64,000 nt of DNA from a virus: IMG/VR virus record IMGVR_UViG_3300046522_000297, positions 1-64,000 of that record. One strand, written 5' to 3'. Shown here piece by piece: positions 12,997 through 63,109 of the stretch. The stretch's first letter is position 1, and every line of letters begins with the position of its first letter. A program made the translations under genes and the position numbers. The notes under the pieces were generated by a model. The model was not told the DNA's origin. It made no database searches and saw only the letters and a list, made by a program, of their open reading frames with translations.

Positions 12997-14628
12997 ATGT
13001 ATAAAGGTAATTTGATCGATTTCTTCCCAGTGACCGAGTATATCACTGGTCCCCGTTCTAATCAGACGGCGGTTATGAACGAAGTTGATAAGGTGATCAA
13101 AGAGGGTAAGAAGAAGATTATCCTCATCGAAGGCCCGGTTGGCTGCGGTAAAAGTGCAATGGCTATTACTTTAGCCCGAGCCTTCGAACAAGCCCACGTT
13201 ATCACTCCTCGTAAAAGTCTCCAGGACCAGTACTACGAGGATTTCAAAGACCACATCGTCCTCATGAAAGGTCGAGGTGCATATCCCTGCACTATCTCGG
13301 ATTCCAGGGCCAAGTATGTCAAGGTTGTTCGAGATATCAAGGATGGTCGTGTAAACGCTCCTAGAATCGACGAGATGAACTGTGGTAGCGCACCTTGTCG
13401 TAACTCCCCGGATACCTATAATGCCTGTGTGAATGACAAAGGCCCGTGCCCATATACGATCGCAATGGAGACGGCTCAGGACAACGGCATCGTTATCCAT
13501 AATCTTCACTCGTTCATCTTCCAGACCAACTTCGCCAATAAGTTCGAGCAGCGAAAGCTGTTGATCGTTGACGAAGCCCATGAGATTGAGGGTATCGTTC
13601 GAGAGTTCATCAGTAAGAAGATTACCATTAACCGTACGGTCTCTAAGGAAAAACAGCCTGAAGACAACGATGTTGAGAAGTGGTGTGACTTTCTGTTGAC
13701 CCCGGAATTCGTTCCGATGGAAACGATGGCGGATCAGATCAATAAACAGAAGGATAAAAACTACCAAAGCTCCCGAGATCAGTACATTGCTAAGATTCAA
13801 CTCCTCCGTGCACAGCAGGAGTTCTACAAGGATAAGTACATTATCCGTAGCACTTATAATCGTGTAGGCGAGAGAATCATCAGCACGAGCTTTGAGTTTA
13901 TCCCGGAGAAGCTCGGCAATGCTGCGACGGACCTAATCCTGAACAAGGGTGAATACGTTGTGCTTATGAGCGGAACGATTTATGGCAAGGACGTGTTCTG
14001 CAAGAACTTGGGTATCAACCCGGAAGAGGCGCACTATATCCGTATTCCCTCGACGTTTCCTGCAAAGAACCGTCCTATTATCGCTAAGCCAGAATACCAA
14101 GTCGATACCTCGTTTGCAAATTGGAACGAGAACTTCGAAGAGATGCTGGGTAAGATCGGTAAAGTCATGGACATCTTCCACGATGCTAAAGGCCTGATCC
14201 ATGCGCCCTCCTACGAGGCTGCCGAGCAGATCGTCAGCAGGATGGGTGGCCGACTCATGACTCACGGTAAGGGTGACATGCAGGAAAAGCTGCAGATGTT
14301 CTACGACAGCGATGAGCCTTTGGTTTTTGTCAGCCCGGTGTGTCAACAGGGCGTAGACTTTAAAGGTGACCGAGCCCGGTTCCAGATTATTCTCCGAGTC
14401 CCTTACGCTAACACCTCCGATGCCTTCGTAAACCATAAAGTCCAGACGGATTTCCAGTGGTATAATTACCAGGCATTAGTAGTATGGGGTCAGCAGATCG
14501 GTCGGGTTAATCGATCTGAAGATGATTACGGTGCCACGTTCCTGATGGATAGCAGGTTTAACAAGTTCATTCAGCGTAACTCTGGCAAAATCCCTAAGTG
14601 GGTTCAATCAGCTATTATTTGGAAATAA
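12997..14628 (+). CDS. DinG/Rad3-like superfamily 2 helicase
   Basis: GPVGCGKS, IVDEAH, MSGT, QGVDFKGD, QQIGRVNRSEDDYG; Cys cluster compatible with an Fe-S domain. Confidence 0.9.
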   Translation: MYKGNLIDFFPVTEYITGPRSNQTAVMNEVDKVIKEGKKKIILIEGPVGCGKSAMAITLARAFEQAHVITPRKSLQDQYYEDFKDHIVLMKGRGAYPCTISDSRAKYVKVVRDIKDGRVNAPRIDEMNCGSAPCRNSPDTYNACVNDKGPCPYTIAMETAQDNGIVIHNLHSFIFQTNFANKFEQRKLLIVDEAHEIEGIVREFISKKITINRTVSKEKQPEDNDVEKWCDFLLTPEFVPMETMADQINKQKDKNYQSSRDQYIAKIQLLRAQQEFYKDKYIIRSTYNRVGERIISTSFEFIPEKLGNAATDLILNKGEYVVLMSGTIYGKDVFCKNLGINPEEAHYIRIPSTFPAKNRPIIAKPEYQVDTSFANWNENFEEMLGKIGKVMDIFHDAKGLIHAPSYEAAEQIVSRMGGRLMTHGKGDMQEKLQMFYDSDEPLVFVSPVCQQGVDFKGDRARFQIILRVPYANTSDAFVNHKVQTDFQWYNYQALVVWGQQIGRVNRSEDDYGATFLMDSRFNKFIQRNSGKIPKWVQSAIIWK

Positions 14629-22360: not shown

Positions 22361-25204
22361 ATGTTTCAAATATGTAAAGAAAGTATCGACCTAGTAGCCC
22401 ACATCGCCAAAGAAACGGAGATGGAGATTGGTGAATGCGGTACTGATACGTATGAAATCAAGGGTGATGACGCTAACGGTTATTGCCCATTCTGTGAACA
22501 TAAAGGTTGTTTCAAGATCAAGCAGAATCCTGAAGAACTCGTCAATGCCTTCTATCACTGTTTCAGCTGCGAACAGCATGGATCGATCATTGACTGGGTA
22601 GCAGAACGAGAAAAACTCTCGCCAGTAGACGCCGCTAGGAAATTGGCTAAAGAGTACAATATCGAATTGCCTAAGGATTTCAACCCGATCCAGGAGATCT
22701 TCGATGTAACTGCGAAGTACTACCATAACTGCTTTATCGATGCAAAGCCGAGTTCCAAGTTAGCACGCATGACCCCGGTTGAGTATCAACTGAAGGTACG
22801 TCGTCACGAAGAATCTACGCTGGCAAAAGCCCAGATCGGTTGGGGCGATGGCGGTCTTGTAGAGTTCCTGGAAAGCTTGGGATTTGAGCCCGATCTCTTA
22901 ATTGAGAGTGGACTTAAAAACAAGAAGACTGGTAAAGACTTCTTGCCAAGCGACTGCTTTCTTTACCCTCACTATGTGAACGGTAGAGTTTCGCATTTCA
23001 CGATCAAGGATCCGATCAAGAAGATTGCGTATCAACTTCCTAATAAGTACTCCCTTAACGGTCATCAGTTCTACGGACAGGACAGTATAAAAGGGAAAGA
23101 CGCCGTTATCGTTGTAGAGGGTGAAAACGATCGCCTCAGTATCATCGAGAGGTCGGAGAAATACGGAGTGCTTGCTACTATTGGTCAAATCTCCGGGGCA
23201 CAGCTTGACTGGATGAGAGAACACCTCAACGGTAAACACGTAATCACGTTGTTCGATCCGGATGAAGCTGGTGATAAATACCGTGTAAAGGTGGAGAAAA
23301 TCCGGTCAGCGTTTAAAAGCCTGACCCAGGTTAAACCGCCGGAAGAGAAAGATATCGATGACCATTTATCTAAGGGTGCGGACCTTGATGGCATCATCTC
23401 TTCTAACGTTGTCAAAGTTGAGTTGGAGGATCGGTTTGTACCTCCTGCGGGACTCACTGTTAATACCACTGTAGTAAAAGAGGACGGCACCACTGAGGAA
23501 ACCCAGGAAACCGTAGAAAACAATAGTGTCATTGAAAAACATGGCTCTTACTGGAGGGTTAAGTTTAAAGATGGAGAACCTCAATATACGAAGATCTCCA
23601 ACTTTACTATTAAGTTAAAGAATGTATATGTTACGGAAGAGGGCGATAGACTTCGAGAAATTGTGGTGGTTAGAGAAGATGGTTTTGTATCTGATCCTGT
23701 TACAACGAATAGTGAGACCAAGGTATCTCTTAAGAGCTTTAGAGTCTTGCTGGCAAGATCTGCTGACGCGGATTTTAGGGGTAACGAACAGGATCTGATC
23801 GGAATGTGGGATCTGATTTATTCGACTAATACGGAAACGCTTGTTAAGGTTACTCGTGTGGTCGGACGTCACGAACAATCTCGTGGTTGGTTGACCCGTA
23901 CCAAATTCATTTCTGATACTGGTGTAGTTATAGAACCTGATGAAAGTGGTATTTTCTGGTCCAACGGAAGAAGCGTAGGGATTCGACCGGAGTCGTTAGA
24001 TAAAAGTGGTAATGGGGATAATACTGATATCCCTCACTTAGTTACTGACACGACTCCCGATGAACGTGAGGAGTTACTCAGAGGGTTGGTTACCAACCTG
24101 GCGAAGAACTTGGGTGACCCCGGCACCGCTTTACTGATGTTGGCCTGGTTCCAATCGTGTGCGTATTCAAATAGTATCTTTAGGCTTAACAAAAGTTTCC
24201 CTATGTTGTTCGTATGGGGAAGCAACGGTGAGGGTAAGGGCACTATCTGTGAATGGCTGATGTCTTTGTACGACTTACATGATAAAGGACGTACAGCCGT
24301 TTCACAGTTAAAGAGTGGTGTTGGTTTTGGTAGAAAGGCGGAGTACTATGCTAGTCTCCCGCTTTGGATTGACGAGATTCGTGCTGACGCGGAATGCGCA
24401 ACGTATAACTCGACTTTCCGTAGCTACTATGACCGCACTCCTCGTACTATGGGTGCTAAGGATGGATTCGGTGTTAAGGTCCAGCATGTACGTAGTTGTT
24501 TCCTGTTTGCAGGTGAGGATCTGTTTGAAGACCCGGCAACTAAAGAACGCTGTATCGTTGCCCGTATCCCTCGTATTGGCAGGGAGAAGGTGGAGAGTTA
24601 CCAGTGGATCGATGCACGTAAGAGTGACCTGAGCAGCATCGGTTACATGTGGATTCTCCAGAGTGTTAATAGAGATCACGGAAAACTCCTGGATCAGATC
24701 CGTAAGTTGGACAAAGAACTGATCCTTGAGGCGAAGTGTTCTTCACGTAAAAGTAAGAACTGGAGTGTTGTAGGTTTATTTGCTATGGAGCTGGCTGAGA
24801 AATATATGCCAGAGTTCGATATGCGTAAGTTCTTGTATGAAATCAGTACGAAGGATAGTATTCAACAGAAAAGCGAGACGACGGTTTCACAGTTCTTTGA
24901 GACGGTTGAATCTATTATGAGTCAAGAAGGCATCCAAAAACTGACAGTGAACCATATTATGAGAGAAGACCATCTTCTCCACGTATGGTTCCCTCACGTA
25001 TATCGGGTAGTGAACGAGGCTTATCATAACAGATTTGCATTTACGAAAAACGCTGTCTTGGCGGCACTTAGGGAAGAACCCTATTTTGTATCAGATGACC
25101 GTAAAATCACTATGGGTATAAACGGGGTGAGGAGGGTAGTTGTAACTCTTGACTTAAATAAAGCCCCAGATTCTATTAAGAACATAGCAAATATCAATAT
25201 CTAG
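22361..25204 (+). CDS. DnaG-type primase fused to a C-terminal P-loop helicase-like domain
   Basis: Zn finger CPFCEH...CFSC, TOPRIM VEGEND and FDPDEAG, KDIDD; Walker A GSNGEGKGT, Walker B WIDE. Confidence 0.88.
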   Translation: MFQICKESIDLVAHIAKETEMEIGECGTDTYEIKGDDANGYCPFCEHKGCFKIKQNPEELVNAFYHCFSCEQHGSIIDWVAEREKLSPVDAARKLAKEYNIELPKDFNPIQEIFDVTAKYYHNCFIDAKPSSKLARMTPVEYQLKVRRHEESTLAKAQIGWGDGGLVEFLESLGFEPDLLIESGLKNKKTGKDFLPSDCFLYPHYVNGRVSHFTIKDPIKKIAYQLPNKYSLNGHQFYGQDSIKGKDAVIVVEGENDRLSIIERSEKYGVLATIGQISGAQLDWMREHLNGKHVITLFDPDEAGDKYRVKVEKIRSAFKSLTQVKPPEEKDIDDHLSKGADLDGIISSNVVKVELEDRFVPPAGLTVNTTVVKEDGTTEETQETVENNSVIEKHGSYWRVKFKDGEPQYTKISNFTIKLKNVYVTEEGDRLREIVVVREDGFVSDPVTTNSETKVSLKSFRVLLARSADADFRGNEQDLIGMWDLIYSTNTETLVKVTRVVGRHEQSRGWLTRTKFISDTGVVIEPDESGIFWSNGRSVGIRPESLDKSGNGDNTDIPHLVTDTTPDEREELLRGLVTNLAKNLGDPGTALLMLAWFQSCAYSNSIFRLNKSFPMLFVWGSNGEGKGTICEWLMSLYDLHDKGRTAVSQLKSGVGFGRKAEYYASLPLWIDEIRADAECATYNSTFRSYYDRTPRTMGAKDGFGVKVQHVRSCFLFAGEDLFEDPATKERCIVARIPRIGREKVESYQWIDARKSDLSSIGYMWILQSVNRDHGKLLDQIRKLDKELILEAKCSSRKSKNWSVVGLFAMELAEKYMPEFDMRKFLYEISTKDSIQQKSETTVSQFFETVESIMSQEGIQKLTVNHIMREDHLLHVWFPHVYRVVNEAYHNRFAFTKNAVLAALREEPYFVSDDRKITMGINGVRRVVVTLDLNKAPDSIKNIANINI

Positions 25205-40693: not shown

Positions 40694-40780
40694 TGTCCAG
40701 TGACCGGAACTGGCATCGGCCCCGGCTGTTAACCGGGTATGGAGTGAAATCCTTTGCAGGTTCGAAGCCTGCCTGGACAG
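40694..40780 (+). tRNA. tRNA-Asn(GTT), long variable arm, no encoded CCA
   Basis: TGTCCAG/CTGGACA stem, CCCGG CTGTTAA CCGGG, GCAGG TTCGAAG CCTGC, G73. Confidence 0.8.
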
Positions 40781-40789
40781 CTTAGTGTT

Positions 40790-42147: not shown

Positions 42148-42400
42148 TATAACTATAACAATGACTAAACAAGTAAAACAACCAGCAGTACCTCAGATGA
42201 AACCTCTCGTATATGCAGTGAAGTGGATCTGTGAAAACTGGAAATATTTAGCGCGCTAAGCCGATAACGCAGCAATTGCGTTGATCTAAAACCGCACCCG
42301 ATCCGGCAGGGTGTAGAGTTCGTTAGTAGGGAAGGTCTTACTTCTAGTGGTGGAATCTGCTAGGAGGTTCTACTAAGCGACTCATTCTTTTAACCTATAT

Positions 42401-42486
42401 GGGCGACGTGATAGCATGGCCACTATCCCGAGGCTGTAACCCTCGTGTCTCCGACTTTCTTCGTTCGAATCGAAGGTCGCTCACCA
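42401..42486 (+). tRNA. tRNA-Tyr(GTA)
   Basis: CGAGG CTGTAAC CCTCG, variable arm, A73-CCA. Confidence 0.88.
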
Positions 42487-42503
42487 AACACTAAAGGATT
42501 GCT

Positions 42504-42884
42504 ATGAGGAAAATAGCGATTTTGCAAGATTGTTGGAATTACGATAGCTATAGTAACGCAGAACGAATAATCGAAAAGATTACAGATTTCGTAGAAGTAA
42601 GTGATGAGGATTACAACCTCCTAGTGAATGCTTCACATCAACAAGGCTTTACCGTAATCCAAATGCCTTCAAATACTCAAGAGTTTGTAGAGAATACTGT
42701 ACAAGCGTATCTTGAGAGTATCAAGGCTAAAGAAGAGAAGCGTAGAAAAGCCGAACAAGAACGCAAAAGACTACGTGAAGAAAACAAGCGTAGGCAAAAA
42801 GAGAAAGAGGAAGAAGCCGAACGTAAGAAGTTAGAAGAACTTATACGTAAGCACGGTATTCCTAAATTAGACATTGCATCCTAA
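42504..42884 (+). CDS. hypothetical protein with charged coiled-coil tail
   Basis: RBS AAGGA; stop overlaps the 5' end of tRNA-Phe. Confidence 0.65.
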   Translation: MRKIAILQDCWNYDSYSNAERIIEKITDFVEVSDEDYNLLVNASHQQGFTVIQMPSNTQEFVENTVQAYLESIKAKEEKRRKAEQERKRLREENKRRQKEKEEEAERKKLEELIRKHGIPKLDIAS

Positions 42885-42951
42885 GCTAATCTGGTGAAAG
42901 CGACGGCCTGAAAAGTCGTAGAGCGTGGCTCGAAACCACGAGGGTGCACCA
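42876..42951 (+). tRNA. tRNA-Phe(GAA)
   Basis: ACGGC CTGAAAA GTCGT, atypical T loop CTCGAAA, CCA. Confidence 0.85.
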
Positions 42952-42970
42952 CTCAACAAAAGCACTATTC

Positions 42971-42979
42971 TTGGTATAA
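42971..42979 (+). promoter_or_regulatory. phage promoter motif driving the His/Val/suppressor tRNA unit
   Basis: TTGGTATAA GGAT AGTG + hairpin ATAGT/ACTAT. Confidence 0.7.
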
Positions 42980-43014
42980 GGATAGTGCATAAACTATAAC
43001 CAGAGTTTTTTGAT

Positions 43015-43088
43015 TTGGGCGTAGCTTAGTGGTAAAGCCGGGGATTGTGACTCCCCTCACACGAGTTCGATCCTCGTCGCTCAACCCA
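43015..43088 (+). tRNA. tRNA-His(GTG)
   Basis: GGGGA TTGTGAC TCCCC, C73-CCA; position -1 is T rather than G. Confidence 0.9.
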
Positions 43089-43227
43089 AATTAAAGGACT
43101 TTGTCCCTAGAGCATGGTAAATTCGGCACGCTCTCTAAAGTACCAGACCCGACCTCGTATGCGCCCATCATGGCCTTGTCGTAAAGACAGAGTAGTGGTA
43201 GACTAGGCAGAGGCTAGTCAGATTTAT

Positions 43228-43303
43228 GGTTCCTTAGCTCAGCTGGTAGAGCAAGATCCTTACAAGATCGAGGTCGGCGGTTCGATCCCGTCAGGAACCA
43301 CCA
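43228..43303 (+). tRNA. tRNA-Val(TAC)
   Basis: GATC CTTACAA GATC, CCA. Confidence 0.93.
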
Positions 43304-43312
43304 AGTTTCAAA

Positions 43313-43388
43313 GGGGGTATAGCTCAGTGGTCAGAGCAGAGGCTTCTAAACCCTTGTGTCCGGAGTTCGAATCTCCGTGCCCCCACCA
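43313..43388 (+). tRNA. amber suppressor tRNA (anticodon CTA)
   Basis: GGGGGTA/TGCCCCC acceptor, GCTC..GAGC D arm, loop TT-CTA-AA (CTA 43346-48), CGGAG TTCGAAT CTCCG, A73-CCA; C31:C39 mismatch. Confidence 0.88.
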
Positions 43389-43397
43389 AATTTCAAA

Positions 43398-43499
43398 CAT
43401 AAAATAGCTCAGAGTCCCGAATTGACAGAGCATTCCCCGTGAGGCTGAATCAGACGGGAGAGGTCGTTGAGAGACATCAGGGGTTCTCAACTTTTATGA
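43398..43499 (+). ncRNA. tRNA-like RNA A (expanded D, anticodon and T loops; no CCA)
   Basis: CATAAAA/TTTTATG stem, TA-GCTC..GAGC, CCCGT..ACGGG arm, AGGTC, GTTGAGA..TCTCAAC. Confidence 0.6.
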
Positions 43500-43510
43500 T
43501 TGGTTTCAAA

Positions 43511-43594
43511 CTCGAAGAAGCTCAAGCACTCCACAAGTGAGCAAGTCCGGTGTAGGACATAAGGTTGGTGGTTGGAATCCATCCTTCGAGGCCA
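43511..43594 (+). ncRNA. tRNA-like RNA B (aberrant anticodon arm, CCA end)
   Basis: CTCGAAG/CTTCGAG-G-CCA, GCTCA..TGAGC, GTCC GGTGTA GGAC, GGTGG TTGGAAT CCATC. Confidence 0.7.
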
Positions 43595-43603
43595 AGTTTC
43601 AAA

Positions 43604-43688
43604 CACGAGATAGCTCAAAGTCCCTTAACAGAGCAGTCCAATTACTGAAAACAGGTTGCTGGGCTCGGGTCCCCAGCTCTCGTGACCA
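43604..43688 (+). ncRNA. tRNA-like RNA C (no canonical anticodon arm, CCA end)
   Basis: CACGAGA/TCTCGTG-A-CCA, TA-GCTC..GAGC, GCTGGG..CCCAGC. Confidence 0.7.
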
Positions 43689-43729
43689 TTTCGTAACACC
43701 TTTTTTTAACCTTAAATAGAAAGCTAAAA

Positions 43730-44062
43730 ATGACGTAGATTTCCGAACACACCTACAATTACGTTTTTGTCAGAACTGATTTACCCATCCCTCAACAGCT
43801 AGTCCAAGCTGGACACGCTGCCTTAGAAGCTGGAGCAACTTTCGGTCGCATATCGAAAGACCCTGCTTCCCTCATCATACTTCAAGTAAAGAACAAAGCT
43901 AAGCTTGAAGAAGCAATGGCCAAGATCCAAGAGGCCGGAATCCGAATAGAAGCATTTTACGAGCCCGACTGGGACTATGGTTTAACTGCGTTTGCAACTG
44001 AACCCGTGACTCAAGAGAAGCGTAGTATTTTCCGAAAATTCAGACTCTGGAGCCAGGCATGA
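43730..44062 (+). CDS. Pth2-fold peptidyl-tRNA hydrolase-like protein with in-frame TAG at codon 3
   Basis: ATG ACG TAG ATT... then YVFVRTDL...QLVQAGHAALE...LIILQVKN..L......FYEPD..YGLTAFATEP......FRKFRLW; missed by the ORF track. Confidence 0.78.
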
Positions 44063-44625
44063 TTTCCGAAACCTTTGCAGATATGATGCATAACATGAGG
44101 CACTGTTATCAGTTCGAGAACGTGAACATGTATGAACATGGTTCAATGGTGCATGAATCCTTTAAACAACTTATAGCCCAGCTTGAGGGCGGAGAACAGA
44201 TCGTCGATCTTCCTCCGTAGATTTACGAGATTTATGAAGAAACTAAGCACCTACTGGTCAGCGACAAAGACCTGTTTATGTACCATGTGTTTCATGATTG
44301 TGGTAAGCCTGCTTGTCAGACCATAGACGAGCAAGGTAGGAAACACTTCCCGGACCATGCCAAGTGGTCTAAGGAGCAATACGTAAGGATCTTTGGTGAG
44401 AATGGGACTGTACCTGAGTTAATCGGGTCAGATATGGATTTCCATACAAAGTCAGGCGAAGACCTGGCCCACCTGTGGAATTCCCCCTTAGCTCTTACGT
44501 TGTATTTCACGGCCTGGGCTGAGATTATCGCTAACAGTCAAATGTTCGGCGGATTCGACAGTACCAGTTTTAAAATCAAAAAGAAGAAATTGATTCAAGC
44601 AGGTAAAAAATGGAAGAAGAGTTAA
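44059..44625 (+). CDS. HD-domain phosphohydrolase with in-frame TAG at codon 54 (44218-44220)
   Basis: ATGA-coupled to the upstream gene; MYEHGSMV before the TAG, FHDCGKP and HFPDHA after it, all one frame. Confidence 0.8.
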
Positions 44626-44873
44626 TTCTCCCTGATCCCGACTACGTAAAAAGTTACGATTACGGGACTGGAGAAAATCTGGATCTAGGGAGTTTGGTCC
44701 ATCATCTCAAGTCTTTAAACGATATCGTTCTTCAACAAAACGAACGCATAAAAACTCTGGAAGAGATTGTAAAAACGAACCAACCGATCGTTGATGCAAG
44801 TGAAACCCTGGTTCGTAAAACTAACAAACTCGCAGCCGGCGCATGGCCGTTCCCTTCACAAAGGAAATCATAA
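44610..44873 (+). CDS. hypothetical protein
   Basis: RBS CAGGT; coiled coil. Confidence 0.55.
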   Translation: MEEELILPDPDYVKSYDYGTGENLDLGSLVHHLKSLNDIVLQQNERIKTLEEIVKTNQPIVDASETLVRKTNKLAAGAWPFPSQRKS

Positions 44874-44930
44874 TGTTCATCACCCATCACTACAAGGCAT
44901 CTCACTTGTGTAATTTAACCACACAAGGAG

Positions 44931-45230
44931 ATGAAATTGAGCAATACCATCCGTCGCAAGACCCTCGCACTGCCGTACCACTTCCGTAACAAGTATATCC
45001 TTCTCGAAGGCTATAAGCCTCTTGAGGAGGGCGAACTGAAGAAAGCCGACCAACACTTCCGCCGTGACGGCCGTCGTTTCTTCCCAAGCTTCTCCGCACC
45101 GAAATGGTACCGTAAAGAACAACAGGGTCAGTTCAAAGTAAAAATCAAACACGAACTCAGCAAGTTCCAAAAGAACTCTGAGTATGAAGTCCAAATCGAC
45201 CGTAAATACCAACACGGTTATTGGGACTAA
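44931..45230 (+). CDS. basic hypothetical protein
   Basis: RBS AAGGAG. Confidence 0.6.
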   Translation: MKLSNTIRRKTLALPYHFRNKYILLEGYKPLEEGELKKADQHFRRDGRRFFPSFSAPKWYRKEQQGQFKVKIKHELSKFQKNSEYEVQIDRKYQHGYWD

Positions 45231-45237
45231 TCAACAT

Positions 45238-45311
45238 GGGCTTGAGCGTAGGTTACGTCGTCCTCCTTTGCACGGAGTGATGCTGGGTTTCGATTACCCA
45301 CAGGTCCACCA
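45238..45311 (+). tRNA. tRNA-Ala(TGC), atypical D arm
   Basis: G3:U70, CTCC TTTGCAC GGAG, TGGGT TTCGATT ACCCA, A73-CCA. Confidence 0.75.
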
Positions 45312-45978: not shown

Positions 45979-46443
45979 ATGACTCGTATCAATCTAGTCC
46001 ACCCTTCCAGACTTGCAGATCAACATCTGTTCGCTGAATGGCGTGAGATTAAACACATCCCGGCTTTTCTTAATCAGCTTTTAGCCAAAGGTAAAAGCAT
46101 TGAAGAGATCAAAGCCAAGATCCCTGAAAAGTTCTGTCTTAACACTGGGCACAAGTACTTCTTTGTGGATAAACTCAAATTCCTGAGTGGTAGGTTCTGG
46201 AAGATTCTAGCAGAGCTAGATGCCAGAGAATACAAGACGTTCAGCGGAGCGCCTTGGGAATGGGAGTACTCCCTGGAGAAAATTCCAGATGAGTACTTCA
46301 ATGACTACGTCCCTGATTATATCGCCCTCGAACTCTCTGAACAACGCCTCCTGGAACGAATAGATCAACGTCCGAACTGGTATCGCTATAAGGGCGAGAT
46401 CAAGGACTTGCAATTCTTCAAGGATCTGCTATACTCTAAATAA
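45979..46443 (+). CDS. denV: pyrimidine dimer DNA glycosylase (T4 endonuclease V-like)
   Basis: MTRINL....LADQHLFAEWREI, GH..FF.DKL.FL..R, RP.WYRY. Confidence 0.92.
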   Translation: MTRINLVHPSRLADQHLFAEWREIKHIPAFLNQLLAKGKSIEEIKAKIPEKFCLNTGHKYFFVDKLKFLSGRFWKILAELDAREYKTFSGAPWEWEYSLEKIPDEYFNDYVPDYIALELSEQRLLERIDQRPNWYRYKGEIKDLQFFKDLLYSK

Positions 46444-58413: not shown

Positions 58414-58501
58414 GCGCCGGAAGCCCTATTGGTCGGAGGCCCTCGACTCATAATCGAGCTGCGAAAGCACGTTGCGGGTTCAAAGCCCGCCCGGCGCACC
58501 A
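58414..58501 (+). tRNA. tRNA with CAT anticodon (Met or Ile2), long variable arm
   Basis: GCGCCGG/CCGGCGC, CTCGA CTCATAA TCGAG, TGC GAAA GCA arm, A73-CCA. Confidence 0.85.
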
Positions 58502-58519: not shown

Positions 58520-58607
58520 GGACCGGAAGCCCTACTGGTCGGAGGCCCTCGACTAATAATCGAGCTTCGAAATCACATTGCGGGTTCAAAGACCGCCCGG
58601 TCCACCA
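58520..58607 (+). tRNA. tRNA with AAT anticodon (Ile), tandem paralog of the CAT tRNA
   Basis: GGACCGG/CCGGTCC, CTCGA CTAATAA TCGAG, A73-CCA. Confidence 0.75.
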
Positions 58608-62920: not shown

Positions 62921-63109
62921 ATGTACATTACCTGGACTCTCCTATTTATTGTATCTGCAATCCTCGGAGGGCTCTTCGGTGATTGTGGTATGACTGCAAC
63001 AGCGGGTGGATTGTTTTCCATCGCTCTAGTTGCAGCAATTGCATTATTCGTAACGTGGATAGATGACGTAGAAACTAAAACCGTTGACGACTCGGTACGT
63101 AAGCGTTAA
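62921..63109 (+). CDS. small membrane protein
   Basis: two hydrophobic helices. Confidence 0.55.
   Translation: MYITWTLLFIVSAILGGLFGDCGMTATAGGLFSIALVAAIALFVTWIDDVETKTVDDSVRKR

Follow-up and report, generated by a model that had tools for sequence, protein, structure and literature searches.

Why would a virus that reads the standard genetic code carry a suppressor tRNA beside two genes that are each interrupted by an amber (TAG) codon? The question is raised by a locus in a 64,000-nucleotide (nt) stretch of viral DNA, positions 1 to 64,000 of IMG/VR record IMGVR_UViG_3300046522_000297, referred to here as the window. The record that contains it is 114 kb long, with a completeness of about 71% according to CheckV. 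At the locus, a transfer RNA gene with anticodon CUA, tRNA(CUA), lies at 43313-43388 on the + strand. It is followed on the same strand by gene A (43730-44062), which encodes a 110-amino acid (aa) protein of predicted PTH2 fold readable only through a TAG at codon 3, and by gene B (44059-44625), which encodes a 188-aa protein of predicted HD fold. We refer to the in-frame stop codons as gates. The suppressor tRNA, gene A, and gene B probably form a conserved phage module in which synthesis of full-length A and B requires that the phage tRNA decode the stop. Readthrough itself, its performance by the phage tRNA, and the enzyme activities of A and B are suggested by comparison of related loci and by predicted structures.

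Two interrupted genes and their conservation

Gene A starts 341 nt 3' of tRNA(CUA) and reads ATG ACG TAG ATT, with TAG as codon 3 (43736-43738). This leader gate (ATG-ACG-TAG, 43730-43738, + strand) is followed by A, and the first canonical in-frame start of the gene (translation table 11) lies 59 codons past the TAG, beyond the YVFVRTDLP..Q.VQ.GHA core. Genes A and B are joined by an ATGA stop/start overlap (44059-44062, + strand), which recurs in Mimasvirus, Eneladusvirus, and ME3. The gate in gene B is internal, at codon 54 (44218-44220, + strand), and is also followed by A. It separates the invariant H27 on its 5' side from the invariant HDCGK motif (residues 79-83) on its 3' side, and both stops share the context CG-TAG-ATT-T. 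A first-pass annotation of the window had described a complete tRNA with anticodon CTA, an ATGA-coupled pair about 340 nt downstream with this shared context, a Pth2-like gene A with TAG at codon 3, and an HD protein with TAG at codon 54 between its motifs. All of these features were recovered: the tRNA by both ARAGORN and Rfam, the overlap and the stops in the sequence itself, the Pth2-like character of A by Foldseek matches to Pth2/Bit1, the HD fold of B by VIA-align, and the position of its TAG, with H27 before it and HD79-80 after it, by alignment of B proteins.

Comparison by blastn led to the 354-kb Yersinia phage fHe-Yen9-04, in which the pair is annotated as the fragments g408 and g409. 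The pair is ATGA-coupled there too, A is interrupted by TAG at codon 4 and B at codon 47, and 2.5 kb downstream lies a tRNA-Sup-CTA gene. Gene B was found by tblastn in 30 phage records in GenBank, and 14 GenBank loci were taken for reading of the N-termini. With the stop codon written as an asterisk, gene A begins MT*ISEH in the window, MSH*IDK in fHe-Yen9-04, MAH*NEK in XbC2, MAQ*NEK in GAP32 and CBB, MTH*NDK in BF, MT*IHEN in ME3, ML*ISDK in RsoM2USA, and ML*NKHW in Arash. The fused A-B gene of pT24 begins MK*ITKN, the fused B-A genes of XacN1 and RAS14 begin MK*TIK and MK*TLN, and gene B of the 634-kb LR745206 begins MNT*ITF. The gate stop is TAG throughout the cultured phages and is neither TAA nor TGA in any of them. 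The tBLASTn comparison proposed when the locus was first noticed finds TAG kept in about 12 cultured phages, and a profile search finds it in most of 64 IMG/VR lineages. The amber-gated pair was borne out, but it is not peculiar to one phage, as had been supposed; it is a widespread conserved module.

The IMG/VR lineages were collected with a B profile, which gave 80 loci forming 64 clusters at about 90% B identity, and 2,673 other open reading frames (ORFs) of at least 80 aa from the same loci served as the control set. An ATG followed by one to eight sense codons and TAG opens gene A in 47 of 58 clusters (81%), compared to 74 of the 2,673 controls (2.8%; Fisher p=2e-57), and gene B in 31 of 64 clusters (p=8e-29). 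The gate TAG is codon 3 in 35 cases, codon 4 in 25, codon 2 in 6, and one of codons 5-9 in 12. Of 33 clusters in which B stands apart from A, 23 show a leader TAG on B itself; where B is coupled or fused to A, it has an internal TAG in 7, a leader TAG in 3, and none in 11. Judging from these arrangements, there is one gate per translation unit.

A purine, and above all A, after UAG is the classic context of efficient amber suppression and weak termination by release factor 1 (RF1) in Escherichia coli. The base 3' of the gate TAG is A in 64 of 78 gates, G in 14, and a pyrimidine in none. Genuine TAG terminators in the same loci are followed by A in 24% and by a purine in 52% of cases (p about 2e-21 and 2e-19). 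Upstream of the leader ATG, at a distance of 4-18 nt, 50 of the 78 gates have a strict Shine-Dalgarno (SD) core; the frequency at random positions is 8%. In approximately 46% of gates the next codon is AAC, AAT, GTT, GTA, ACN, GCN, or GGC, none of which is a start codon.

Internal gates are also shared between relatives. The codon-54 column of gene B is also TAG in L019, L021, and L022, where identity to the window's B protein is 93%, 55%, and 48%, respectively. In Mimasvirus and Eneladusvirus the internal TAG is a different one, placed eight residues nearer the N-terminus, and further independent internal TAGs are found in L068, L085, L051, and L095. Among about 60 TAG-free lineages, 20 have TGG at the column of the window's internal TAG, within an LP-x-W-[IVLF] motif. 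The nearest database relatives have Leu at this position.

The cognate tRNA accompanies the gates in most lineages. ARAGORN locates tRNA(CUA) within 10 kb of the locus in 43 of 64 clusters, always on the A/B strand. The median separation is about 1 kb, and in many cases the tRNA lies immediately 5' of gene A. It is in the locus for 40 of the 58 TAG-bearing clusters, and a whole-contig pattern search combined with ARAGORN identified seven more carriers (L040, L047, L048, L061, L089, L068, and L077). RAS14 and Arash each carry tRNA(CUA), and CUA tRNAs are reported in the phages' own papers for XacN1 (two; PMC5852040) and RsoM2USA (one). A narrow pattern search, or a search limited to 10 kb on either side of the locus, gave no tRNA(CUA) for six contigs (14-83% complete), L050 and L086 (8 and 12 kb), G018 (L085, near-complete), and LR745206. 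Two lineages are gated by TGA, and both (2/2) carry tRNA(UCA). Gene A of L063 begins ATG GAA TCG TGA with tRNA(UCA) about 200 nt upstream, and gene B of L065 begins ATG TTG TGA in a genome with two tRNA(UCA). Outside these lineages there are one doubtful UCA tRNA and no UUA tRNA, compared to 52 CUA. The expectation that TAG would co-occur with a CUA tRNA therefore holds, on the same strand and with an anticodon that tracks the gate codon. The CUA tRNA of Arash (OQ632216, 49176-49247; L005 4000-4071), located about 460 nt 3' of B, is labeled 'tRNA-Phe' in GenBank, while ARAGORN assigns it anticodon CUA.

In cultured bacteria (a Pseudomonas megaplasmid, Bosea, and Psychromonas), homologues of B start normally, and their surroundings contain no suppressor tRNA. 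Contigs from metagenome-assembled genomes (MAGs) labeled Obscuribacterales/Melainabacteria (L162, L164-L167, L169, L171, and L172) have a cassette without gene A, in which a TAG-gated B (MT*V..., ML*V...) is followed about 100 nt downstream by tRNA(CUA). GenBank entries for GAP32, CBB, BF, XbC2, fHe-Yen9-04, and Arash show A and B as two to three short 'hypothetical protein' fragments resulting from the in-frame TAGs, and the 'putative membrane protein' GAP32_398A is a spurious annotation with the same origin.

Genetic code and tRNA genes of the record

Code use was analyzed on ORFs of at least 120 aa across the 114-kb record. Standard-code ORFs of this size cover 73% of the record, and the coverage rises less when TAG is read as sense than when TGA or TAA is. 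TAG terminates 20 of 143 long ORFs (14%), and a DnaG-type primase of 947 aa (22361-25204, + strand) ends with it. The whole record was also scanned for in-frame TAGs that are flanked on each side by coding signal or preceded by a short leader, and the only credible ones are those at 43736 and 44218. Other candidates at 13933(-), 19798(-), 93691/93877/94183(+), 100761(+), 113322(+), and 113667(+) are antisense shadows of longer ORFs, and the candidate at 72389 is explained by two normal genes that adjoin each other. The sequence ATGACGTAGA recurs at 63063, out of frame within a small membrane-peptide ORF, and this recurrence was considered a coincidence. Two in-frame TAGs in 114 kb, together with regular use of TAG as a terminator, are not the pattern of a code-15 recoded phage, which has many in-frame TAGs and rarely ends genes with TAG. 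The code switch is local to the gene pair, and the genome is not recoded. The claim that the standard code applies outside the pair is therefore sustained. It had been accompanied by the statement that the primase and several HNH genes end in TAG; this is correct for the primase, and two HNH-looking ORFs do end in TAG, but Pfam gives no support for their HNH identity.

No release-factor gene and no match to PylS were found in the record, and either absence is weak because the record is only about 71% complete. A scan of 42400-45300 for promoters and terminators gave matches no more numerous than in shuffled sequence.

The window has 19 tRNA genes according to ARAGORN, every one on the + strand. 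tRNA(CUA) is 76 nt long (ARAGORN) and scores 63 bits against the Rfam tRNA family (RF00005), for which the gathering score is 29. Its anticodon loop is UUCUAAA, its discriminator is A73, CCA is encoded, and a C31-C39 mismatch is the only one. With a canonical cloverleaf, anticodon CUA, U33, and a purine at position 37, it is a good candidate for an amber suppressor. The 'tRNA-Pyl' label given by ARAGORN was read as a mere reflection of the CUA anticodon, and a pyrrolysine system was rejected because PylS had no match in the record and the tRNA fits the general tRNA model well. An initiator-type tRNA using TAG as a start was likewise rejected. The tRNA has a G1-C72 pair and does not have the three G-C pairs of initiators, and this explanation is further opposed by SD and ATG leaders that are in frame as a rule and by the internal TAGs. 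Elsewhere in the window, ARAGORN calls at 40694-40781, 58414-58501, and 58520-58607 include unusually long (88 nt) tRNA-Asn and tRNA-Met and a tRNA-Ile with anticodon AAU; these three may contain introns or be miscalls.

The spacer between tRNA(CUA) and gene A contains three degenerate tRNA-like units (43399-43690, + strand). A TTTCAAAC linker precedes each unit, and the same linker separates real tRNAs. Neither ARAGORN nor Rfam called the units, and an Rfam search of 43389-43729 returned no family at E<=1. The unit at 43512-43596 can be folded into a cloverleaf ending in GGCCA; its z-score is not significant, and it folds no better than shuffled sequences. Unit 3 and the 70 nt before the gene A ATG are conserved in the relative L019. 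The units may be decayed tRNAs or processing signals, and the spacer may place gene A within the tRNA transcript. Just 3' of the module, a pyrimidine-dimer DNA glycosylase (PF03013) is encoded at 45979-46443 (+ strand).

Among 52 phage tRNA(CUA) genes (L019-L098), the anticodon loop is CUCUAAA in 40, and the 31-39 pair is non-Watson-Crick in 16 (C-A in 13 and C-C in 3, including that of the window), which leaves a 4-bp anticodon stem. A73 is the commonest discriminator, and several phages have two distinct CUA tRNAs, one with A73 and the other with G73. Tracing the isoacceptor origin of these tRNAs by sequence similarity was abandoned for want of a consistent answer: a Lys tRNA is the top match for 14 of 54, which is not convincing. 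Database homologues P0038 and P0271-P0278 have Q at the gate position; at the DNA level, near-identical loci carry TAG there. The counterpart of P0038 is L028 (98% identity), which has TAG in its DNA at that position, so the Q is probably a product of code-15 gene calling and was rejected as evidence for Gln as the inserted residue. Database proteins called in this way can mislead inference of the inserted residue. At the N-terminal gates the stop falls almost directly after ATG, suggesting that the identity of this residue hardly matters there.

Proteins encoded by genes A and B

Gene A was modeled by AlphaFold2 (AF2) with a mean predicted local distance difference test (pLDDT) score of 94.7. 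In a Foldseek search of PDB with this model, the best 13 matches are all Pth2/Bit1 (probability 1.0, TM 0.65-0.74), pointing to a Pth2 alpha/beta fold. The gene A profile also matches PDB Pth2 with E=1.2e-4, and its R..D...Q..HA core aligns with solved Pth2. Jumbo-phage PTH2 proteins have been catalogued in a review (PMC7824862); it makes no mention of suppressor tRNAs, and the word 'amber' is confined to its references.

Gene B belongs to a family of 411 representative clusters at 50% identity. An alignment of 21 diverse members has H27, H79-D80, H100, D125, and H129 invariant, consistent with the H...HD...D metal ligands of HD proteins. A Met at residue 13 is invariant as well and is often taken as the start by gene callers. 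Sequence searches detect the family poorly: gene B has no Pfam match at E<=0.1, and hence none to PF01966 (HD), its relative P0157 has a weak HD match (E=0.0078, 16.9 bits against a cutoff of 22), and a PDB search with the gene B profile gave weak matches only (E >= 0.03). The AF2 model, with a pLDDT of 95.6, was compared to 48,161 chains using VIA-align. The matches include residues 250-446 of 3wfo_A, a class II tRNA nucleotidyltransferase (Z 13.1), and the HD domain of the bacterial glycyl-tRNA synthetase (GlyRS) beta subunit (Z 10.4, 8.6, and 8.4). PhnZ, the PPX/GppA C-terminal domain, PgpH, HD-GYP, YfbR, SpoT, RelH, and others follow at Z 6.4-10, indicating an HD fold. The tRNA-binding region of class II tRNA nucleotidyltransferases (PDB 3WFO-3WFS) and the GlyRS beta HD domain are thus the best structural matches and cover nearly the whole protein. 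Gene B differs from them in that it is free-standing and headless, with the full invariant H..HD..H..D set like active HD phosphohydrolases. Its identification as a class II tRNA nucleotidyltransferase was rejected, because at 188 aa it is without the nucleotidyltransferase head and resembles the tRNA-binding part only. The gate in gene B lies at the end of a coil (residues 43-52) and the onset of a helix (53-65). In the model, the two internal TAG positions bracket one surface coil between helices 24-42 and 53-65, with that of the window at its C-terminal edge.

Other phages have fused versions of the two genes, with either A or B first, and many members of the B family are fused to PTH2. Fusion in either order argues that A and B work together. 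The folds and the fusions make the acceptor end of tRNA the most likely joint target of the two proteins. Protein A would remove peptidyl or N-blocked aminoacyl groups from tRNA, and protein B would be a metal-dependent phosphohydrolase acting on the tRNA 3' end.

Possible role of the gates

In the mechanism that we propose, ribosomes would initiate at an ordinary SD sequence and ATG and reach UAG after one to eight codons. In some lineages, including the phage of the window, they would meet a second UAG inside B. When RF1 wins at the leader, a di- to octapeptide would be released and little would be wasted; termination at the internal UAG would leave a 53-residue piece of B that lacks the HD motif. 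When phage tRNA(CUA) wins, the full-length protein would be made. The output of A and B would then be set by the amount of functional suppressor tRNA (processed, charged, and intact) relative to release factor. As for the purpose of such a gate, negative feedback through a sentinel tRNA and a timer that awaits accumulation of phage tRNA appear about equally plausible. A homeostat, in which the suppressor tRNA is the sentinel and two enzymes of the tRNA acceptor end are synthesized according to its functional state, is a tentative proposal.

Several observations weigh against this mechanism. The genome closes 14% of its own long ORFs with TAG, so a strong suppressor should be costly. A complete genome of 177 kb, G010 (L098), has a leader TAG and no suppressor among its 30 tRNAs, and in G005 (L057), also complete, the sole candidate is a tRNA-like element with loop CUCUAAA, which scores 25.4 bits against the gathering score of 29. 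In L056, L078, and L080, B starts normally and is free of TAG, yet there is a tRNA(CUA) no more than about 1 kb away; in such TAG-free lineages the tRNA may serve other targets or gated genes. The CUA tRNAs are diverse and not conserved in sequence even among close relatives, and L019, whose gene A is 99% identical to that of the window, carries a different one. The codon after the gate TAG is ATT or ATC, which are rare start codons, in 39 of 78 gates, and GTG directly follows both TGA gates and could be an ordinary start there. Regarding the proteins, gene A matches Pfam PF01981 with E=1.4e-4 and 22.4 bits, under the cutoff of 23, although the A domains of fused relatives are above it (33.1, 28.8, 27.3, and 26.9 bits). 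The loop before Q..HA in gene A is also two residues shorter than in solved Pth2; hence its chemistry may differ from that of canonical Pth2.

Some of these observations would be explained if ATG-x-TAG were a tiny upstream ORF, with re-initiation at the next codon (ATT, ATC, or GTG) or a downstream start, and if the tRNA were unrelated and nearby only through the tRNA cluster. The ATT or ATC codons, the GTG codons, the invariant Met at residue 13 of B, and the leader without a suppressor in G010 all agree with this, but we consider it improbable. Re-initiation cannot account for the internal TAGs of B (codon 47 or 54), which lie between essential motifs and are not bypassed by it, for the exclusive use of TAG where TAA would work as well, or for the non-start codons after about 46% of gates. 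The first canonical start of gene A is past its conserved core, TGA gates covary with tRNA(UCA), and these loci hold 52 CUA tRNAs compared to one good UCA and no UUA. A simple attenuator is unlikely for some of the same reasons. In it, TAG would keep A and B low through leaky termination or near-cognate readthrough by the host, and the suppressor tRNA would serve another purpose and not be a regulator. The TAG-A context is weakly terminating in E. coli, CUA tRNAs occur in three TAG-free lineages, and G010 has the gate without the tRNA. Against this, the tRNA adjoins the genes on the same strand in most lineages, its anticodon covaries with the gate codon, and the record of the window offers it no other gene with an in-frame TAG; the authors of the XacN1 genome saw no readthrough extensions past 18 annotated amber stops (PMC5852040).

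Regulation could instead run through defense, as the first-pass annotation suggested, with the gate opening when host attack impairs RF1 or alters tRNA status and the rescue enzymes being induced on demand. The enzymes plausibly act on tRNA ends, and phage tRNA clusters are tied to escape from tRNA-targeting defenses. The difficulty is the sign of the response: tRNA damage would disable the suppressor too and close the gate, so that such a sensor of defense or of RF1 is less likely than feedback or a timer, and we doubt it; the record, moreover, yielded no release-factor gene. That the TAGs are assembly errors or private nonsense mutations in dying genes, a possibility raised with the first-pass annotation, is contradicted by their conservation, their fixed context, and the comparison with control ORFs. 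Identical TAGs are present in two independent metagenome assemblies (L003 and L004) and in about a dozen independently sequenced cultured phages, the cores of both proteins are strongly conserved and modeled at a pLDDT of 95, and every gate is TAG except in the two TGA cases with tRNA(UCA); artefact or decay is extremely improbable. Genome-wide reassignment of TAG (code 15) is hardly credible either. A phage-encoded CUA tRNA is a hallmark of recoded phages, but in this record long standard-code ORFs account for most of the sequence, TAG terminates genes including the primase, coverage gains less from TAG as sense than from TGA or TAA, and coding signal flanks no in-frame TAG besides the two gates.

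Translation-machinery genes can be controlled by their own early codons, as in the autoregulation of prfB (RF2) through an early in-frame UGA and of infC through an AUU start. The proposed mechanism resembles these in that an early in-frame mRNA signal would tie such a gene to the activity of a translation component. It differs in that prfB and infC use a frameshift or start-codon choice and the cell's own factor, whereas the decoder of the module would be a dedicated tRNA that it carries itself. Recoded phages (code 15, TAG=Gln) are similar in that a phage tRNA(CUA) decodes in-frame TAGs and in that a regulatory role of this dependence has been proposed (10.1101/2021.08.26.457843; PMC7886860; PMC9523058). 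In those phages, many late, structural, and lysis genes have many TAGs, and TAG is largely abandoned as a terminator, whereas the phage of the window has two specific genes with one TAG each, and its module is gated at codons 2-9 or in a loop. Laboratory amber-suppressor switches such as the 'leak dampener' (PMC7969014) also combine an early TAG with a separately supplied suppressor tRNA as an AND gate; they are engineered, while the phage module is natural and conserved over dozens of lineages. Full-text literature searches found genome-wide phage recoding and no description of a tRNA(CUA)-A-B module. The XacN1 paper identified no target for its own CUA tRNAs (PMC5852040), and a 2026 jumbo-phage survey considers whole-genome recoding only.

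The module would provide a concrete target for the CUA 'suppressor' tRNAs that are annotated without known purpose in many large phages with the standard code. It also explains a systematic annotation error, in which genes are split, truncated, or missed (fHe-Yen9-04 g408/g409, GAP32_397-399, and Arash gp84c), and it links PTH2-fold and HD-fold proteins as a probable two-enzyme tRNA-end system. If it occurs as proposed, readthrough by a tRNA of viral origin can target two particular genes instead of an entire genome, and the module would be a natural example of the switch that synthetic biologists build from an amber codon and a suppressor tRNA. Should the homeostat be true, the tRNA would regulate the enzymes that maintain it and at the same time report on their class of substrate. 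The module would then represent a natural feedback switch operated by a tRNA, common among large phages and found in some bacterial MAG contigs as well.

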